DNA of 64,000 nucleotides from Elusimicrobia bacterium RIFOXYA2_FULL_47_53 (GCA_001800315.1 MGVE01000009.1:11295-75294); one strand, 5' to 3'. Shown: positions 5,057 to 49,468, counted from the stretch's first letter. Translations and numbers: made by a program. Notes: generated by a model not told the origin, from the letters alone.

Positions 5057-6131
5057 AAATCGCCTCTATCCGCTGTGATTACCCTAAACTTTTTTTGAAC
5101 GGCTGAAAAATTTAATGACTTCTTGAAATGGAATGACTACATTTTTTACAACGAGATTCTTCGCCCGCCACAGCGGACTCAGAACGACGGCGTTTTGTGG
5201 ATTCCGGACAAAACATTTTAAGCTATAAGTTTTAAGTTGTAAGTTATAAGTGAACGACGCTTCTGTGTCGTCATCCCAGAGGCAGTAATCTGGGATCCAC
5301 TTCCTTGAGTCATTAACAAAATGCCATTGTTCTGGATTCCGGACGGAAACTCTCCGGAATGACGGCGTGTAGCGCTTCTGTGTCGTCATCCCAGAGGCAG
5401 TAGTCTGGGATCCAGCCTTTACAGACTGTGTGGCAATGTCATCCTGAGCGTTAGCGAAGGATCGCGAAGTTATTGTTACCATAGAGATGCTTCACTGCGT
5501 TCAGCATGACAGCAACTCAAAGTCCTCGTTAATGGCAGTTATGACACAGTCTGTTAGTCTTACTTCTGGATTCCGGAGTGGCGGCCCAATGCTTTGAATA
5601 AAATCAGCCGGCCTCCCAGGCGAATGCGAAGCATTCTTCACCCGTCCAAAGACGGGTGATTTTTCGCCGCGGGACAGAAACTCTCCGGAATGACGGCACA
5701 GTTGTGACTTAAGCCTTTAAGGGGCTTTTGGGTTGCGTACCCCTTCCGAGCCGATTATGAGCAAAAGAATTTTTGGAGGCCTTCAGTCTTGCCTGTTTGA
5801 CCTGCCGACAAGGCAGGGAGTTTGCAAGACTGCCAAAATACTTTTGCGAATGGCTCGCGGGTGGCGAGTTTCTTTATTATCGTTCTTTGCTCGCCCAAAG
5901 AAAGTTAAAATCAGGTGTCGGGAATGACGACACTTTACGGAACGCGCGGCAAGCTGCGCAGCTACGGAATCATTTTTACTACGGGATTGCTTCTCTCCCT
6001 GCGGGAGATCGCAATGACGCGGCCTTATTAAGGCTCTTGGACAGCCGTGCCAAAACTATCTTTAAAATAAAAACGCAAAACGCGAATAAAATCTATCCGC
6101 ATCTTGCCGTCAAACCGCCAGCCGAAATGCT
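5057..6131. repeat. Coding-free mosaic of nested stem-loop repeat modules (locus A of six)
   Basis: 1075 bp with no credible ORF. It is built from modules that recur at 20410-20624, 25904-26274, 40410-40761, 45985-46593 and 54520-54810. See findings for module coordinates. Confidence 0.9.
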
Positions 6132-7929: not shown

Positions 7930-7952
7930 TATTTTTCAATATAAATAAAGAA

Positions 7953-7983
7953 CCCCAAACAGCCGGTTTACGGCTATTTGGGG
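7953..7983 (-). terminator. Intrinsic terminator after groEL
   Basis: The minus strand reads CCCCAAATAGCCGTAAACCGGCTGTTTGGGG (long GC-rich hairpin) followed by TTCTTTATTTAT. Confidence 0.7.
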
Positions 7984-8024
7984 CCCATTTTATCTGTTAT
8001 TTGCTGTTCGTTTTATCCCTGATT

Positions 8025-9653
<1,629 letters not shown>

Positions 9654-42267: not shown

Positions 42268-43629
42268 TTAGCCCTTTAGCTTGTATATAGTTCCCCGACC
42301 GGTTACCCCTACCCTGACAAGAACTTGCTTGCTAACCATATCTTTTAGGTCAATAGTAGCCATAGGTTTTGAAATATCCGTCAATTCTTGATATTGCTTA
42401 TTCGTTATCTTTCCTTTTTCTTTAACATAGGCGACAGCTTTTATCTGTCTTTCGTTAAGGCCAAGCTTTTGCAAGTTCTCTTCAGTATGGGTGTCCTTTG
42501 AGAATGTTATCTGAAAGCCTTTTTGGCGTTCTTTTATGGCCGGGATAGGAACTTCTGCATCGTTGCATAGATGAACCATTTTACCTATACCGCTCCCCCA
42601 CTGTTCAATGAATTCAATGTCAAAGAAGACCTTTGCAATTCCCTTGTTTCGTGTATCGGAATCATGCGTCTTAAATAAATCTTCTACGGAAACATTAGGT
42701 GCTAATCCTCCGGGATTCCATATCTCAAGCCGGTCATCGTGTATTCGTACGCTTATATTGGAAGAAACGAGATAATCTCTGTGACATACGGCATTGATAA
42801 GAGCTTCCCTAATAGCGTCAAGCGGATAATCCCAAACATTTTTACGCCGCGGCTCGCCAGTCATTACAAATTTAACGCTTATGTTCTTTTTGATAAAATC
42901 CATCGCCAAATCTACCTGGTCAATTAATGTTCCCTCAACCATGTCATCATCAATTACAAGCGACTCATTCTTGAATCTTCCGCAATGGATTACTGCCTGT
43001 TGTACATACCTCATCGGACGCTTGCCAAAAAGAAGCAGGGCGGCCCAGGCAGGAACACCATCTTTGATAAACTCAAGTTTTTTCAATATCTCTAAGACAG
43101 TTTCATCTTTGGGGATTTTTCGGCGGCCGGTTTCATTGGCAGTATCTCTATATGCAAACACTTTTTTTTCATCTATGTCTTTTAAGGAATATCCTGCGGC
43201 TTGAGTTAAATCCCAGCTCATATCAAGCGACTTATAGTGCATATCGGCGATTTCTTGCGGGGTCATCAAGCGGTTGCTGTTCTTAACCCTTCTAAAGCAC
43301 TTACCCTTAATAGCTACGGGCTTAATGGGGCATTCTTTAATAGTGATAACTGCGATGATTTTATTGTCAACGGTAAGTTGCTCTACATCGGGGATTACGC
43401 GGGGATTGCTTGCTTGGGTGATCTGGTTTATCCAATCGTTTATGGTTTCTTTGCCAATCTGAATTCCTTTTATTGTGCCATTGTCTGAGACACCTACTAT
43501 AATGGTACCGCCTTTGGAATTAGAAAACGCCCCGGCAGTTTCTACGGCCTCTCTGTCGAAGCTTTCTTTGAAGTCCAATGTCTCGGACTCACCCTTGCTA
43601 ATGATTACTTTAAGTTCTTCCGGTGTCAT
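42268..43629 (-). CDS. AlbA_2 (Schlafen-like) + HATPase_c_4 + wHTH protein (often annotated RecG-like putative DNA-binding protein)
   Basis: 453 aa. GESETLDFKESF...AFSNSKGGTIIVGV (AlbA_2), REALINAVCHRDY...RLEIWNPGGL (HATPase_c_4-like), and a C-terminal wHTH. The sampled line gives ~38% GC. Confidence 0.75.
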   Translation of the reverse strand: MTPEELKVIISKGESETLDFKESFDREAVETAGAFSNSKGGTIIVGVSDNGTIKGIQIGKETINDWINQITQASNPRVIPDVEQLTVDNKIIAVITIKECPIKPVAIKGKCFRRVKNSNRLMTPQEIADMHYKSLDMSWDLTQAAGYSLKDIDEKKVFAYRDTANETGRRKIPKDETVLEILKKLEFIKDGVPAWAALLLFGKRPMRYVQQAVIHCGRFKNESLVIDDDMVEGTLIDQVDLAMDFIKKNISVKFVMTGEPRRKNVWDYPLDAIREALINAVCHRDYLVSSNISVRIHDDRLEIWNPGGLAPNVSVEDLFKTHDSDTRNKGIAKVFFDIEFIEQWGSGIGKMVHLCNDAEVPIPAIKERQKGFQITFSKDTHTEENLQKLGLNERQIKAVAYVKEKGKITNKQYQELTDISKPMATIDLKDMVSKQVLVRVGVTGRGTIYKLKG

Positions 43630-43781
43630 AGTTACCCTACGAATATGATTTTACATTTTTTATATGTCTTTGGCAACAAAACGCAAAATACGGATAGACT
43701 AATTCTCAGACAGAGCCGGGGCTAAGACTGGGCTTAAAATCGGGCTTTTTCAATTGACTCAAATATTGTATAATCTGCCCT

Positions 43782-45614
43782 ATGAACACAAGAATACTGT
43801 TTCTGGCCTATGTTTTACTATCCCATTTTGCCGCGACTGCGTGTTTCGCGTCGGAAGGCACGGCTGACGAAAAGGCGTTGCCGGCAACAAAGAGCTACGC
43901 CGGCGCGGGTATTCCGTTTAATATAGCCCATCCGAAAGAAGGCCAGCAGCTGCCATACCTGAAATCTTCCTTTGTTTTCGGTTCCGCCGATCCGCGCGGC
44001 AAACTCTACATTAACGGCGCGGAGACTCCAATCTTTGAAAGCGGCGGATTTCTTGCCATGGTTCCATATTCAACCGGAACTTTCTCAATAATCGCCGAAC
44101 TGAAAATATTTGAGAGCTCCAAAACAATTACAAGAACTATATTTGTGGCTCCCCCCGCGGAAACACCTCCCGCCTCGCCCTTAACCCTTATTTCGTCTAA
44201 ACCGGAAATGGACTTATCTCTCAGGACGGGAGAAACATTTATTATTGAATGCAGGGGCAGCCCCGGGGCTAATGCATTGGCCAAAATTAAAGGCTCCAAA
44301 GGAGTAATTAATTTAAGCGAAACGGCACCAGGCTCCGGGATTTACCGTTTTCTTTACAGGATTAAGCCGGGCGATAATTTCAAGGACTCCGAGATCTCCG
44401 TAACGCTTGAGAATAAAAAGGGCAGAAAATCCATTGTCGCCTCCGGAAAAATATCTAAACTTGAACCGGATTCGTTCTGGCAGGCGGAGGTTTCAGCCGA
44501 TAACGCTGTTGTCCGTTCCGGTTACGCTTTAACGCCTGCGGATAAGGCGGGATATGTTTTATTTCCTCCCCAGGGAACAAAGTTTCTTGTCACGGGCAGG
44601 CGCGGCCAGGAACTGGAAGTGCGTTTAAATCAGGCCCGCAGCGGCTGGATCGGAGAAACCGAGGTCAGGCCCGCCGGCCATAGCACCCCCAGGATAACCA
44701 GCGGCAATTTAATTGTCAGCTACCAAAAACCGAATTCGCTGCTGCGCTTATATCTTGGCGCGAAGCCGCCCTTTGAAGTTACGGCTTCTCCCGCGGAGGA
44801 CAAGATTGACATAAGGTTTTTCGGAGTGGTTTCAAACACGGACTGGATAAATTACGAGTCCACTTCTTCCATAATAAGTTTTGTTGAGTGGTTTCAGGAT
44901 GACACGGAGACATTCCGAGTGACACTGCACTTAAAAGAGACTAACTGGTGGGGCTACGACGCGAGGTTTGAAAACGGAAGTTTTGTTTTTGAGATCCGCC
45001 GGCCCGAAAAAATCCCGGCCGCTGATTCAACCCTAAAAGGCATTATGGTAGCCATTGACGCGGGACACGGGCCCGAAACAGGGGCCGTGGGCCCAACGGG
45101 CCTTGAAGAAAAAAATGTAAACCTTAGTATCGCGCTTTCGCTTGAAAAAATGCTTTTAGCACAGGGGGCGGAAGTAACTATGATTCGCAGAGGGAATGAA
45201 CCGGTAAGCCTTTACGATAGAATAAGAAAAGCCCAGAACATCAAAGCCGATATGCTGATAAGCATCCACAACAACGCGCTTCCCGAGGGGCAGAACCCGC
45301 TGGTAAAAAACGGGTTCGGCGCGTATTATTACTACCCGCAAAGTTTCGCGCTTGCCCAGGAGATTCATGATTCTCTGGCAAAAGCATTTTCTTCTTCATA
45401 TTCAAAGTACCCGCTGAGAGACGACGGACTTTACTACGGCAACCTCGCTCTCGCCAGGGTTCCGCAGATGCCTGCGGTGCTTGTTGAGTGCGCTTACATA
45501 ATCGTGCCGCGCGAGGAATCGCTGCTTAGAAACGCGGGATTTCAAAATGCCTGCGCGCAGGCTATAACTTCCGGTATAAAAAAGTTTGTCGCGGCTAAGA
45601 AAAAGCGGAAGTAA
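43782..45614 (+). CDS. N-acetylmuramoyl-L-alanine amidase (Amidase_3) with a long N-terminal domain
   Basis: 610 aa. Signal peptide and a C-terminal IMVAIDAGHGPETGAVGP...ADMLISIHNNA amidase_3 core. Confidence 0.88.
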   Translation: MNTRILFLAYVLLSHFAATACFASEGTADEKALPATKSYAGAGIPFNIAHPKEGQQLPYLKSSFVFGSADPRGKLYINGAETPIFESGGFLAMVPYSTGTFSIIAELKIFESSKTITRTIFVAPPAETPPASPLTLISSKPEMDLSLRTGETFIIECRGSPGANALAKIKGSKGVINLSETAPGSGIYRFLYRIKPGDNFKDSEISVTLENKKGRKSIVASGKISKLEPDSFWQAEVSADNAVVRSGYALTPADKAGYVLFPPQGTKFLVTGRRGQELEVRLNQARSGWIGETEVRPAGHSTPRITSGNLIVSYQKPNSLLRLYLGAKPPFEVTASPAEDKIDIRFFGVVSNTDWINYESTSSIISFVEWFQDDTETFRVTLHLKETNWWGYDARFENGSFVFEIRRPEKIPAADSTLKGIMVAIDAGHGPETGAVGPTGLEEKNVNLSIALSLEKMLLAQGAEVTMIRRGNEPVSLYDRIRKAQNIKADMLISIHNNALPEGQNPLVKNGFGAYYYYPQSFALAQEIHDSLAKAFSSSYSKYPLRDDGLYYGNLALARVPQMPAVLVECAYIIVPREESLLRNAGFQNACAQAITSGIKKFVAAKKKRK

Positions 45615-45696
45615 AAATAATTCGGATCACTCTGAAGGGTTTGGAAGGTTATATTTAAGGGACTTCCCTTTTTAGAAAGTCCCCAAAATACAAATT

Positions 45697-45741
45697 TTAT
45701 TTCTTTTTCGCTTTCTTTTTTGCTTTTTTCTTTGCAGCCAT
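45697..45741 (-). CDS. Candidate 14-codon micro-ORF MAAKKKAKKKAKKK
   Basis: ATG at complement(45739..45741), preceded by GGAGGTGAT with 8 nt between GGAGG and the ATG. Stop TAA at 45697-45699. Too short for the ORF track. Confidence 0.35.
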   Translation of the reverse strand: MAAKKKAKKKAKKK

Positions 45742-45775
45742 CCCGATCACCTCCCTGTTGTGACACTTATCGGAA

Positions 45776-45880
45776 ATAAAAAAGCCACGCAATAAAACTG
45801 CGCGGCCAATGCTATCGGGTTATTTTCGTCGTAATTATTTCTATTCGAAAAATTGTCATTCATGCCCCTTTCAAGTTTCT
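45776..45880 (-). ncRNA. Candidate ~105-nt small RNA (promoter-to-terminator unit)
   Basis: Promoter TTGTTA (45915-45910), N17, TATAAT (45892-45887), with a predicted start near 45880. Internal 6-bp stem 45846-45851/45823-45828. Terminator GCCGCGCA-GTTTTAT-TGCGTGGC (45806-45784) plus TTTTTTATTT. Confidence 0.45.
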
Positions 45881-45886
45881 GAAATA

Positions 45887-45915
45887 ATTATACATCATAT
45901 TTTTTAATATAACAA
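45887..45915 (-). promoter_or_regulatory. Sigma-70-type promoter of the candidate sRNA
   Basis: The minus strand reads TTGTTA-N17-TATAAT inside a very AT-rich stretch (45840-45960). Confidence 0.55.
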
Positions 45916-45984
45916 TAATTTATTTTAAATTTTTTATTTATTTTTTGTGTTTGCGCGCGAACCTGGGCAGTTCTCCGGTAAGAA

Positions 45985-46593
45985 GGCGGGGTTATTCTGA
46001 TTATAACTTTCTTTGAACGCGCAAAGATAGTAAGTAAAGAAACTTGCGACGCCTCACCATCTCGGACCGGCCGTCATTCCAGAAATGTTCTGTCTGGAAT
46101 CCAGAACAATGGCATTTTATTAATGACTCAAAGAAGTGGATCCCAGACTACTACCTCTGGGATGACGACACAAACTAGTCTGTCATCCCTACCCCCGATT
46201 GCGGCACTTGAGGGCAAACTCCAGCAGGGATCCAGAAAAACCTCTGGATACCAGCTTCTGCTGGTATGACGACACGAAGAAGTTCGCCGTTCACTTATAA
46301 CTTGAGTCAATTGAAAAAGTGTTTCAGGCCGTCTTTGCGAGGAGCGCAACGACGCGGCAATCTCGTCGTTCCCGACGGAAAAGCGAGATTGCTTCACCCT
46401 GCGGGCTCGCAATGACAGGGTCTAATTAAGGGTTTTTCAATTGACTCAACTTACAACTTACATCTTAAAACTTATTACTTAAAATATTCTGTCCGGAATC
46501 CACAAACGCCGTCATTGTGATCTTCCGCAGGGAGATAATATTCTCGTCGTTTGAGGAAAAACGAGACCCTTCACTTCGCTCAGGGTGACTTTA
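45985..46593. repeat. Stem-loop module mosaic, locus E (mostly inverted copies)
   Basis: 46071-46172 is the reverse complement of 5263-5365 (10 mismatches in ~101 nt by hand). 46228-46273, 46511-46551 and 46543-46589 are inverted copies of modules seen at loci B, D and F. Confidence 0.9.
46302..46449. mobile_element. 148-bp MITE-like unit bounded by 18-20-bp TIRs (TTGAGTCAATTGAAAAAG / GGGTTTTTCAATTGACTCAA)
   Basis: Left TIR 46302-46319, right TIR 46430-46449 (reverse complement, 1-2 mismatches). The interior carries hairpin modules and has no coding capacity. Confidence 0.6.
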
Positions 46594-46660
46594 TATGTCT
46601 GATGAAATCTTCACCGGCAGGCATGGGCTCTATCCGAGGATTAGGGGATCTGGAGTATGC

Positions 46661-46689
46661 TTGACTAAAACCTGCTATTTATATAGAAT
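46661..46689 (+). promoter_or_regulatory. Sigma-70-type promoter ~345 nt upstream of tRNA-Leu
   Basis: TTGACT (46661-46666), N17, TAGAAT (46684-46689). Confidence 0.55.
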
Positions 46690-46808
46690 CTCACAGTCAA
46701 GCCGAATTGAAAACTATAACAATATATGTATGCCGAGGTGTCCGCCACTACTGCGGGCGGATTTGCTTCACCAACTGCTTCCGCAGTTGGTTCCTTGAAT
46801 ATTATAGA

Positions 46809-46976
46809 TTGAGTCAATTGAAAAAGCCTGTTTCAGGAGCGAAATTTTGGGCTTTGTGCCGAGGCAAGGCGGCCGAAGCGAGCATATGCTCCACGGAGTA
46901 TATGTAAACTGAGGACAACGAAGCCGCAGGCCAAAGGCCGAAATTGCAGCCCGAAAGAGGTTTTTCAACTGACTCA
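46809..46976. mobile_element. 168-bp MITE-like unit with the same TIR family
   Basis: Left TIR TTGAGTCAATTGAAAAAGCC (46809-46828), right TIR GAGGTTTTTCAACTGACTCA (46957-46976). The first ~30 nt match unit 46302-46449. Confidence 0.6.
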
Positions 46977-47032
46977 GAGAAGTTACAGTGTGCGGTTATC
47001 TGACAAGCTAATCAAACAAAAAATAGTTTATT

Positions 47033-47119
47033 GCCGAGGTGGCGGAACTGGCAGACGCGTCAGACTCAAAATCTGAAGTCACTTTGGGTGGCGTGTGGGT
47101 TCAACTCCCACCCTCGGCA
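47033..47119 (+). tRNA. tRNA-Leu (anticodon CAA)
   Basis: Hand-folded cloverleaf: acceptor GCCGAGG/CCTCGGC plus A; anticodon stem TCAGA/TCTGA with loop CTCAAAA; long variable arm; T arm GTGGG-TTCAACT-CCCAC. No encoded CCA. Followed by T7. Confidence 0.92.
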
Positions 47120-47141
47120 TTTTTTTAATCTATAGTTTTTA

Positions 47142-47825
47142 CTAAATACCAAGAAGTTCCCCGACAGGAATAATTTCATATCCTCTTTTTTTGAGCTCTT
47201 CAATAATCAGCGGCAGCGCTTCAACAGTGCTCTCTCTTTTCACTCCTCCGTCATGCATAAGAAAAATCGCGCCGGGCTTGATGTTTTTAATATATTCCGC
47301 GGCCAGCTCGCTGCCGGTCATTTTCTTCCAGTCGCAGCCGAAACTCCAGTTTACAAGAACCATGTCATGCCTTCCGGCGACTTCCCGCACCCAGGGTTTC
47401 ACGAATCCATAGGGCATACGCATCAGCCGCGGCTTAAGGCCCGATATTTTTTCCAAAGCGGCATTGGCCCGGGCTATCTCCCCGGACAAAAGCTCTTCCT
47501 TGTCATCTTTTTTATACGAGTAGAAATTAGGATGCGTGTACGAGTGAGCGCCCACCTCGTGGCCGTCATTATAGACGCTTTTTACAATTTCGGACCTCGC
47601 GGCGGCCAGCTGGCCTTCCATAAAAAAAGTGGCTTTGATATTGCCGGCTTTTAGAATTTCCAAAATTTTGGGCGTAAATTTTCCCGGGCCATCATCAAAA
47701 GTCAGAGCTACGGCTTTTCTGTCTTTGTTCCCCTGGGCGAAAAACGGCGCCATTTTCTGTTCCGAGTTTACTTCCGCGGAAATAACCGCGGCTAAAACAA
47801 ACAATAAAAACACAGTTTTTTTCAT
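47142..47825 (-). CDS. Polysaccharide deacetylase (NodB homology domain), secreted
   Basis: The start is moved to the ATG at 47825 (MKKTVFLLFVLAAVISA), giving an ATGA overlap with the upstream permease. Motifs ALTFDDGP and GAHSYTHP. Confidence 0.88.
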   Translation of the reverse strand: MKKTVFLLFVLAAVISAEVNSEQKMAPFFAQGNKDRKAVALTFDDGPGKFTPKILEILKAGNIKATFFMEGQLAAARSEIVKSVYNDGHEVGAHSYTHPNFYSYKKDDKEELLSGEIARANAALEKISGLKPRLMRMPYGFVKPWVREVAGRHDMVLVNWSFGCDWKKMTGSELAAEYIKNIKPGAIFLMHDGGVKRESTVEALPLIIEELKKRGYEIIPVGELLGI

Positions 47826-49468
47826 CTTTGCCCCGATTCTAAAGATTTCAGGCCGAAGCGGAGCGGCAGGACTACCGCAATGAGATTGACCGCTAACAGC
47901 CCGCCGGCAACCCACGGAAGTCCGTACGAAAGATTCCGCGCGCTGTAATAATTCTGTATGGGTATCGCCCATAAGCCCATATTCACAAGAAGATAAAAAA
48001 GAGCGGAGACCATAAAAAGCAGGCCGCCCGGCGAAGACTCTATCTCGGAAACATTCGTGGAATCATATTTTGGGAAAATTGAACCCAGCCCCACCGCCAT
48101 GGAACACAGGCCAAGGCCCATAATTGTGACAGCAAGCGCGAATATGGCCGTAAGGGCCATGTCTGCTTTTAGAATGAAGCCGGAAAAAATTACGAGCGAG
48201 GAGCCGAAAATCACCATAGGGAGCGAACCATAAACAAGTTTTTCAAAAATAAATTTTGCCGGAGAAAACGGGAAAGAACGGACAAGCCAGAGGCTCTCGC
48301 CTTCAAGGCTGACCGAAGGAAATACGAACCTCAGAGCGACCGCCGAGAGCATGAAACCTATAAGGCCGAGGTTAAAATATGTCACGAGGTTTTGAATATA
48401 TAAGGTTTCAAGCGGAAGCTTGTAGAGGCTGAAAAGATAAACCACAATCAGCGCGCCCAGCAAAACCAGCTGAGACCATTGGCTGGCGTCCCTGAAGAAA
48501 ATCGTGAGATCTTTTCTGAAGAACGCCTGCAAAGGCATTCTTTTTACATAGGAGTTCGTTCGTCTTTGTCCGGATCCCCCAAAAATCTGAGCCGAAGCCC
48601 AGCCTTCAAAATAATATTTTCTGGCAAATAAAATAAGCGTGGCAAATAACAACGCCGCGCAGCCGTACAGAAGCGCCGAATTCAAAGCAACACCTTTAAG
48701 CGATCCCGCGGAGGAAGCAAGAATGCCCGCGGTAAGCCACCAGGAGGGAAGATAAGGCGCGGTCGGAGCATCCAGATAACGAAGGTATTGCGATACCAGC
48801 TCCAGAGCGTCGGGCCTTAAAAGCCGTTCCGGCTGAAGAAATCTCAGCAGAATATATATGCCAGTCACAAACATTACTCCCGAGAAAAGCAAAATATCCC
48901 TCGTCTTTCTTCTGGGAAGCAGTTTCATAAGTATCAGGCACAAAAAAATTCCCAGGCTCCCTGATATAACCAGGAACGGAACTGTCAGGACAAACCCGGA
49001 GACATAAAACCAAAACGAGAGATGCTTTACGGACCCGAGCGCCCCCACAAACGGGATTAGCAAAAGCAGTACCATCCAGGAAGAATAAAATATCGTTTCA
49101 AACGCTTTGTAAACAAATATCCCGCGTACCCCCAAAGGTTTTGTCATAAGCCACGGAAGGTCCCTGCTGGAAAATAGCGTATTAAACGAAGCTATAAGGC
49201 TTGAAATAATTACCATGGAAAACGATGTCAGAAAAACGAGCGCGAGGAGTTTATTGGTCAGCAGAGGGCCAATCAACTGAACAGAATTGAGCTCCTTTAA
49301 CAGGCGCCAGGCTCCGGCGTAAATACCCAGAATAAAAGCGCAGGCGGTTATCAGCATCAAGGCCGCCTTTATCTCCCCGCCGAGGCTCATGCGGACAATC
49401 TTGTTCCTGATGCTTTTTAATTTAATTGAAAGAATGATTTTCATATTTTGAGCAATTTTAAAAACCAA
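47822..49468 (-). CDS. Polytopic membrane protein, putative ABC exporter permease
   Basis: 548 aa with ~12 hydrophobic segments. Lies directly downstream of an ABC ATPase. Confidence 0.6.
   Translation of the reverse strand: MVFKIAQNMKIILSIKLKSIRNKIVRMSLGGEIKAALMLITACAFILGIYAGAWRLLKELNSVQLIGPLLTNKLLALVFLTSFSMVIISSLIASFNTLFSSRDLPWLMTKPLGVRGIFVYKAFETIFYSSWMVLLLLIPFVGALGSVKHLSFWFYVSGFVLTVPFLVISGSLGIFLCLILMKLLPRRKTRDILLFSGVMFVTGIYILLRFLQPERLLRPDALELVSQYLRYLDAPTAPYLPSWWLTAGILASSAGSLKGVALNSALLYGCAALLFATLILFARKYYFEGWASAQIFGGSGQRRTNSYVKRMPLQAFFRKDLTIFFRDASQWSQLVLLGALIVVYLFSLYKLPLETLYIQNLVTYFNLGLIGFMLSAVALRFVFPSVSLEGESLWLVRSFPFSPAKFIFEKLVYGSLPMVIFGSSLVIFSGFILKADMALTAIFALAVTIMGLGLCSMAVGLGSIFPKYDSTNVSEIESSPGGLLFMVSALFYLLVNMGLWAIPIQNYYSARNLSYGLPWVAGGLLAVNLIAVVLPLRFGLKSLESGQR

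Follow-up and report, generated by a model that had tools for sequence, protein, structure and literature searches.

On the minus strand of our window (the whole 64-kb stretch of DNA analyzed, from an Elusimicrobia MAG), a promoter, a terminator-containing leader, an un-annotated 14-codon open reading frame (ORF) and a second hairpin lie in tandem. Judging from the sequence, we consider it probable, at roughly 60%, that these elements form one unit, in which an attenuating leader precedes a conserved 14-codon gene with a terminator of its own. The original prediction had taken the promoter and the first terminator for a stand-alone unit specifying a small RNA. That architecture looks real, and a ~105-nt RNA is a reasonable expectation, but the unit does not stand alone: a Shine-Dalgarno (SD) sequence and the 14-codon ORF, encoding MAAKKKAKKKAKKK, follow 17 nt on. 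Most likely, the ‘small RNA’ is the terminator-containing leader of the MAAKKKAKKKAKKK gene, which we call the mini-gene.

The promoter is a sigma-70-type match, TTGTTA-N17-TATAAT (45915-45887, minus strand), that agrees with the consensus at 10 of 12 positions. It is the top site in a promoter scan of 44000-48000 and again in a relaxed rescan of 45960-45740, and thus stands where the original prediction placed it as the best local candidate. Directly 5′ of the -35 hexamer, we read from the sequence an A/T-only tract resembling an UP element (45916-45946, minus strand). The extreme AT-richness ascribed to these surroundings is borne out as well, as the 60-mer with the lowest GC content in the window (45887-45946) contains 3 G/C and the runner-up contains 10. 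By itself, a promoter-like match is weak evidence: seven occur in 44000-48000, where 4.1 ± 2.4 are expected, a mild enrichment. Promoter spacing would place the transcription start site (TSS) at ~45880. Between this predicted TSS and the SD, the relaxed rescan found no promoter matching at 9 or more of 12 positions; a weak promoter-like site within the leader, TTTCGA-17-GAAAAT, matches at 7 of 12.

About 105 nt downstream of the promoter, folding identifies an intrinsic terminator, T1, on the minus strand (45807-45773). An 11-bp stem-loop (45807-45783) is followed by the U-tract TTTTTATTTC, a tail also given as UUUUUUAUUU. T1 folds at -16.7 kcal/mol (z = -4.55), with none of 200 shuffles equally stable, and it resembles and ranks with the simple hairpin-plus-T-run terminators behind real genes of this genome. 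The same sequence read from the plus strand folds at only -10.5 kcal/mol because of a G·U pair, and this difference marks T1 as a minus-strand RNA structure. The strong minus-strand intrinsic terminator of the original prediction is therefore present. The rest of the 5′ leader (45880-45756, minus strand) has little to offer structurally: ~60 nt of AU-rich, unstructured RNA are predicted ahead of T1, and, once T1 is set aside, the 113-nt RNA folds no better than its shuffles (z = -0.96). A second, 6-bp hairpin proposed for this interval (45851-45846/45828-45823) does appear in predicted folds, but with a pairing probability of only ~0.44. A search of Rfam, suggested with the original prediction as a check on the small RNA, returned no family for the leader when the window was scanned at gathering scores; under permissive settings, the best sub-threshold matches had E values of at least 1.8 and aligned to the terminator alone. 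Matches to phages and plasmids by blastn were at chance level alone. A riboswitch would be expected to present a conserved, structured aptamer 5′ of an expression platform; this leader is AU-rich, unremarkable in folding at the z score just given and matched by no Rfam family.

Beyond T1, the minus strand reads leader, GGGAGGTGATCGGG-ATG, the codons of the mini-gene and then the second hairpin. The extended SD, GGGAGGTGATC (11 nt; 45755-45745, minus strand), begins 17 nt after the T1 U-tract and ends 3 nt 5′ of the ATG, with its GGAGG core 8 nt upstream of that start codon. Its 10-mer GGAGGTGATC occurs once in the 64-kb window and is the window’s strongest SD, longer than that of any of the real genes there, which have SDs of 0-5 nt and at most 8. 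We take GGAGGTGATC to be a perfect complement of the 3′ tail of 16S rRNA, assuming the canonical textbook tail for a window that carries no 16S gene. The mini-gene itself (45741-45697, minus strand) is un-annotated and comprises 14 codons and a TAA stop, with three 12-nt units of the form GCN AAR AAR AAR. After the ATG, its codons are GCT GCA AAG AAA AAA GCA AAA AAG AAA GCG AAA AAG AAA TAA, and the window holds no second ORF of this kind. Nine of the 14 residues of MAAKKKAKKKAKKK are Lys, and there is no hydrophobic stretch. Removal of Met is expected before Ala, so the predicted product, also written AAKKKAKKKAKKK, would be a 13-residue Lys/Ala polycation.

The second hairpin, T2, lies 3′ of the mini-gene (45693-45649, minus strand). 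Its folding energy is -20.4 kcal/mol as minus-strand RNA versus -11.0 kcal/mol for the plus strand (z = -5.3), and it carries a weak U tail, UUAAAUAU, that is poorer than the tails at most other mini-gene loci described below. On the folding model, T2 is probably a terminator or a 3′ stabilizer. As the folding of T1 and T2 is biased toward the same strand, both are minus-strand RNA structures. The window thus holds what a separate transcription unit would contain, namely a promoter (45915-45887), a leader of at least 60 nt and a hairpin within ~70 nt 3′ of the coding sequence.

With no promoter of similar quality between the TSS and the ORF, and with the SD just 17 nt beyond the U-tract, transcription must pass through T1 to arrive at the mini-gene. 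T1 would then act as an attenuator in the leader, and the ~105-nt RNA would be the product of termination there. We envisage a single minus-strand unit composed of a strong sigma-70-type promoter with its A/T tract, a ~125-nt leader, the mini-gene and T2. RNA polymerase would start near 45880, and many transcripts would end at T1 to give the ~105-nt RNA originally predicted. Polymerases that read through would produce an mRNA of ~230 nt. In this longer RNA, a 13-nt block comprising the SD and the pre-start nucleotides, GGAGGUGAUCGGG, could be held in a two-part helix with CCCGAU and UAUUUCC, so that attenuation and SD masking would both hold back translation of the mini-gene.

The masking fold was computed on the read-through RNA 45880-45645. 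In this RNA, CCCGAU (45819-45814) is predicted to pair with AUCGGG (45747-45742) at a pair probability of 0.89, and UAUUUCC (45778-45772), in the distal U-tract, with the SD core GGAGGUG (45754-45748) at 0.80, all on the minus strand. Together, these pairings would bury the whole SD/pre-start block in a helix that brackets T1. The predicted probability that the SD is unpaired is 0.057 versus 0.47 in shuffled leaders (p ~0.05), with ~5% of shuffled leaders masking the SD equally well. We considered masking as a trait of the whole mini-gene family and rejected it, as the SD is open in the leaders of Terriglobia and of the single locus L058; in the Nevskiaceae leader, masking is not significant. 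The leaders of these three start instead with a 5′-terminal hairpin. More generally, the leaders of other clades contain no terminator and leave the SD unmasked in most cases, so the terminator-containing leader appears to be a lineage-specific elaboration, and attenuation and masking would both be confined to this lineage. The leader of one Acidobacteriota lineage, in which the mini-gene is duplicated in tandem, has an anti-SD-like CCUCC motif.

How the two blocks might be lifted is suggested by a 15-codon upstream ORF (uORF), MTIFRIEIITTKITR (45859-45812, minus strand), which has AAGGGG 5 nt 5′ of its ATG. Its UAG stop (45814-45812) is separated from the T1 stem by 4 nt (45811-45808); an ORF ends 0-12 nt 5′ of T1 in 8% of shuffles. 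Nine of its 15 codons specify Ile or Thr, and an Ile-plus-Thr content of at least 60% was reached in 0 of 5,000 shuffles, for a feature that was picked post hoc. A ribosome on the uORF would cover both the T1 5′ arm and CCCGAU and could thereby lift both blocks. Any regulatory role of the uORF is speculative. The leader contains no segment complementary to a T1 arm that could serve as an antiterminator, and the minimum-free-energy and centroid folds both contain T1 only.

The 14-codon ORF recurs well beyond this genome. We scanned for ATG GCN GCN (AAR)3 GCN (AAR)3 GCN (AAR)3 T-R-R, a pattern worth ~71 bits set against ~2^40 positions. The identical ORF was found at 12 loci among genomes of 185,579 species (one genome per species) and at 12 further loci in a metagenome scan that excluded the present population, the peptide identity of these matches being imposed by the pattern and hence no measure of purifying selection. 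At all 24 other loci (L038-L061), the MAAKKKAKKKAKKK ORF ends in a true stop, TAA or TAG, and an SD-like purine-rich motif lies no more than 20 nt upstream; these motifs include GAGGAGGG, GGGAG, AGGAG, AGGAGG, AAGGAGG and GGAGGTGA, with GGGGG at L053. A GC-rich hairpin, usually with a T-run, follows within ~70 nt at most loci and is not clear at L049 and L058. The Ala and Lys codons vary synonymously and track the GC content of the host.

By their leaders, these 24 loci sort into ~9 types that are dissimilar in sequence, and by record title their carriers are Acidobacteriota (two types), Gemmatimonadota, Nevskiaceae (Gammaproteobacteria) and several single lineages. In the four leader types that could be aligned, a sigma-70-like promoter and a terminator delimit the conserved block, on either side of which the flanks diverge. 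The promoters elsewhere include TTGACT-N17-TATACA in Terriglobia and TTGTGT-N17-CACTAT in Nevskiaceae, and L058, a single locus outside the alignments, has TTGACA-N17-TATACT. A compensatory change, from GCGAUCC/GGAUCGC to GCGAACC/GGUUCGC, is visible in one leader hairpin. At three loci of one Acidobacteriota lineage, a tandem second mini-ORF of 15 codons, MAAKKKASKKKSKKR or MAAKKKAAKKKAKKR (MAAKKKA[S/A]KKK[S/A]KKR), lies outside the scan pattern (minus strand; L038 6645-6689, L041 7914-7958 and L047 555-599). The order there is the paralog with its own SD, a hairpin and then the 14-codon copy, and the paralogs differ among themselves by four synonymous codon changes and two conservative Ser-to-Ala replacements. 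The neighbors of the mini-gene differ in every clade, with no linkage to tRNAs, and it therefore behaves as its own transcription unit.

Several records require care. The locus binned as Woesearchaeota (L049) lies with a bacterial-type LeuRS gene (leuS_bact) and an MsbA-like gene, and that binned as WWE3 (L043) lies with NadA, YajQ and RimO genes, which are typically bacterial and not of the CPR; both bins are probably contaminated or mislabelled. As their labels are untrustworthy, we claim a spread over several bacterial phyla only. The unit labelled ‘Saccharimonadales’ (L039) is identical to a metagenome locus (L055) over the ~335 nt compared, and L055 aligns with the Terriglobia leader type. 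We rejected 24 viral-contig matches to the 10-residue prefix as family members and counted them as background; 20 of them begin longer, unrelated proteins of 48-451 aa and the other four are short in-frame fragments. Rfam searches of 17 mini-gene loci, at gathering and permissive settings, returned tRNAs and chance matches alone. Longer, extended forms of MAAKKKAKKKAKKK are absent among 15 billion predicted proteins, string searches of ~8 million papers outside paywalls found no mention of MAAKKKAKKKAKKK or related strings, and keyword searches turned up no relevant work. The family is probably un-annotated and undescribed. MAAKKKAKKKAKKK is low in complexity, and the Lys/Ala mini-ORF may be partly of convergent origin.

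The genomic setting of the unit is peculiar to its lineage. It lies at one end of a gene-free, 1.4-kb gap (45615-47031) flanked by a gene for N-acetylmuramoyl-L-alanine amidase (43782-45614, plus strand, convergent with the unit) and by tRNA-Leu(CAA) (47032-47120, plus strand). The gene map agrees with the original description of a unit convergent with the amidase gene and without a same-strand gene for more than 1 kb upstream. The host comes from Rifle-type groundwater. Six other assemblies contain the locus at 99.9-100% identity, and a genome scan for close relatives of this Elusimicrobia MAG found none beyond these copies. Among homologs of the amidase, the nearest share 46-50% identity, and other genes come directly after them, so the gap, missing there, is lineage-specific.

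Repeats are abundant in and around this gap. Eight copies of an 18-mer, TTGAGTCAATTGAAAAAG, with the palindrome TCAATTGA inside it, are found in the window where 0.15 are expected, and most of them lie within or beside gaps between long ORFs (46295-46456, 46802-46977, 25880, 29025, 43745 and 54753); within the gap, two inverted pairs of TTGAGTCAATTGAAAAAG enclose segments of ~115 and ~135 nt, much as the terminal inverted repeats of a MITE would. The copy at 43745-43762 separates the amidase gene from an adjoining gene for a 453-aa protein (42268-43629, minus strand) with AlbA_2 (Schlafen-like) and HATPase_c_4 domains. A hairpin repeat, GTCATnCCAG...CTGGnATCC, is present in five copies in the window against 0 expected (46073-46102, 46138-46166, 46246-46270, 5270-5298 and 5385-5413) and accounts for a sub-threshold Rfam match to ‘WsnRNA46’ at 46054-46186. 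A REP-like GC-rich element (46338-46420), which ends in CTCGCAATGACAGGG and has the stem GCAATCTCGTCGTTCC/GGAAAAGCGAGATTGC, has six loose copies against 1.4 expected, the others lying at 6008, 25542, 40529, 54727 and 58390. At the far end of the gap, a promoter-like CTGACA-16-AATAGT (47000-47027) ends 5 nt before the 5′ end of tRNA-Leu(CAA). Elsewhere, the strongest terminator-like hairpin of the window (7950-7990, minus strand; -27 kcal/mol plus a T-run) directly follows a 540-aa ORF (8025-9647) that has the longest SD of any real gene, GAGGTGAT. By its sequence signals, this ORF is probably highly expressed, and the next ORF has probably been given an incorrect start in the TTG at 7958.

There are other ways to read these elements. 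The two halves of the unit could be separate tandem genes, with a trans-acting ~105-nt sRNA ending at T1 and a mini-gene that depends for its expression on a weak internal promoter or on incidental read-through alone. The upstream half does have the canonical shape of an sRNA, in which a promoter for the unit alone is followed by a single-stranded, AU-rich body and a U-tailed terminator hairpin; the leaders of mini-genes in other clades have no terminator; and weak promoter-like sites exist in this leader, such as the 7/12 match noted above. The trans-acting role proposed originally nevertheless found no footing in our searches. No Rfam family matches the RNA, its structure beyond T1 is that of shuffled sequence (z -0.96), and complementarity to targets is at chance: across 46 translation-initiation regions of the 64-kb window, in a search of low power, the best duplex reached -28.1 against -28.4 ± 2.9 for shuffles. 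The 17-nt spacing from the U-tract to the SD and the predicted pairing of the T1 flanks with the SD/start block also tie the two parts together, and we consider a division into two genes unlikely. More improbable still is that the locus has no function, and that promoter- and terminator-like sequences lie with a decaying mini-gene copy in a lineage-specific, 1.4-kb junkyard of repeats. The absence of the gap (45615-47031) from relatives, its dense packing with dispersed repeat fragments and the mild enrichment of promoter-like matches all fit this reading. Against it, the mini-ORF is intact, identical to copies in other phyla and preceded by the best SD of the window, both hairpins are strongly strand-biased through G·U pairs, the AT tract is an extreme outlier and the locus is 99.9-100% identical in six independent assemblies.

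The original prediction had also offered a different coding product, a 38-residue, type I toxin-like small hydrophobic protein, and this possibility is now close to refuted. The 38-codon ORF (45863-45747) is present, its C-terminal half is hydrophobic and one metagenome gene caller placed a product here. That product, the 55-aa ‘protein’ P0121 (45697-45863; 5916-6082 of L003), is an annotation artefact in which the TGA at 45749-45747 was read as sense, fusing the 38-codon ORF to the K-rich ORF read out of frame. P0121, from the same locus, is the sole match to the 38-aa ORF among 1.84 billion representatives, and the exact 38-aa sequence is absent among 15 billion proteins, so that the peptide has no homologs beyond this one gene call and the ORF is probably to be rejected as a gene. 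As was recognized at the outset, its SD is poor, with a spacing of 1 nt to the ATG; the spacing is better in the 15-codon frame that overlaps it. The ORF terminates at a TGA inside the mini-gene’s own SD, and an ORF runs through T1 in 31% of shuffled leaders.

We therefore return to the attenuated leader and its 14-codon gene, and to what MAAKKKAKKKAKKK might do. We give somewhat less than even odds to the proposal that it is an undescribed micro-gene product, kept letter-for-letter across several phyla and encoded by one of the shortest known genes with its own promoter and terminator. A strong promoter, a leader and a terminator of its own would imply a core role, for example as a ribosome- or RNA-bound polycation, and the terminator-containing, possibly translation-sensing leader would have been acquired in this Elusimicrobium. 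A more specific assignment, binding of RNA or the ribosome as a factor akin to the very small ribosomal proteins, is a guess by analogy that we favor over the alternatives but hold with low confidence; it is made because the strong promoter, strong SD and terminator, and structured leaders resemble those of very small ribosomal proteins. Alternatively, the peptide could be a nucleoid or general polyanion counter-ion, or translation of the nine Lys codons could itself be the function.

There are several broader implications. Genes of 14 codons are invisible to gene callers and protein databases. If the proposal is true, an exactly conserved, cross-phylum peptide with strong-expression signals and no fixed gene partner would be an addition to the bacterial small proteome. 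It would also be tractable, as the peptide can be synthesized and several of the carrier lineages are common in soil. For the window itself, the annotation shifts from “orphan sRNA” to “regulated leader plus micro-gene”. More generally, promoter-to-terminator units should be read past the terminator.

Elements of this locus have parallels in several known systems. The ~105-nt unit is built like the Hfq-type and dual-function sRNAs (SgrS/SgrT, RNAIII/hld and SR1/SR1P), in that a dedicated promoter and a U-tailed, Rho-independent terminator enclose an AU-rich body, and, as in the dual-function RNAs, the longer RNA here bears a tiny ORF. In contrast to the latter, this ORF lies downstream of the terminator and not within the sRNA, and, unlike Hfq-type sRNAs, the ~105-nt RNA shows no target complementarity within the window and no family match was found. 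Type I toxin mRNAs likewise contain a tiny ORF, and in their primary transcripts long-range pairing hides its SD, as predicted here. Their products are small, hydrophobic, membrane-active peptides with relatives, whereas MAAKKKAKKKAKKK is purely polycationic without a hydrophobic segment, no antisense RNA gene is evident and the hydrophobic 38-aa ORF is without homologs. SD masking, moreover, is not common to other members of the mini-gene family.

In size and charge, the closest parallels to MAAKKKAKKKAKKK are the very small basic ribosomal proteins (bL36, bL34, bTHX, bS22 and bL37, and eL41), which are similarly tiny and extremely basic. Like their genes, the mini-gene has signals for strong expression, in a promoter close to consensus and in the strength of its SD and terminator. 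The mRNAs of very small ribosomal proteins often have structured 5′ leaders. We know of no described ribosomal protein as short as 14 residues, and MAAKKKAKKKAKKK neither resembles these proteins in sequence nor is linked to ribosomal operons.

The leader can be compared with leader-peptide attenuators (thrL, hisL, pheL and trpL, and pyrL of pyrBI), in which one or two amino acids predominate in an ORF of 14-21 codons that has an SD 5′ and an adjoining hairpin with a U-run. There are differences. Our leader contains no alternative antiterminator helix, and no biosynthetic operon lies downstream on the same strand: the next gene is the convergent amidase, and the downstream genes of other clades are unrelated. 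The K-rich ORF, unlike a leader peptide, is conserved as a peptide across phyla and has its own terminator, and Rfam leader models match neither the window nor the mini-gene loci. The arrangement of such attenuators, a short ORF enriched in regulatory codons and followed by a terminator, occurs here twice, as the Ile/Thr-rich uORF followed by T1 and as the K-rich ORF (9 Lys in 14) followed by T2. As in the case of pyrL, a ribosome could block the terminator directly.
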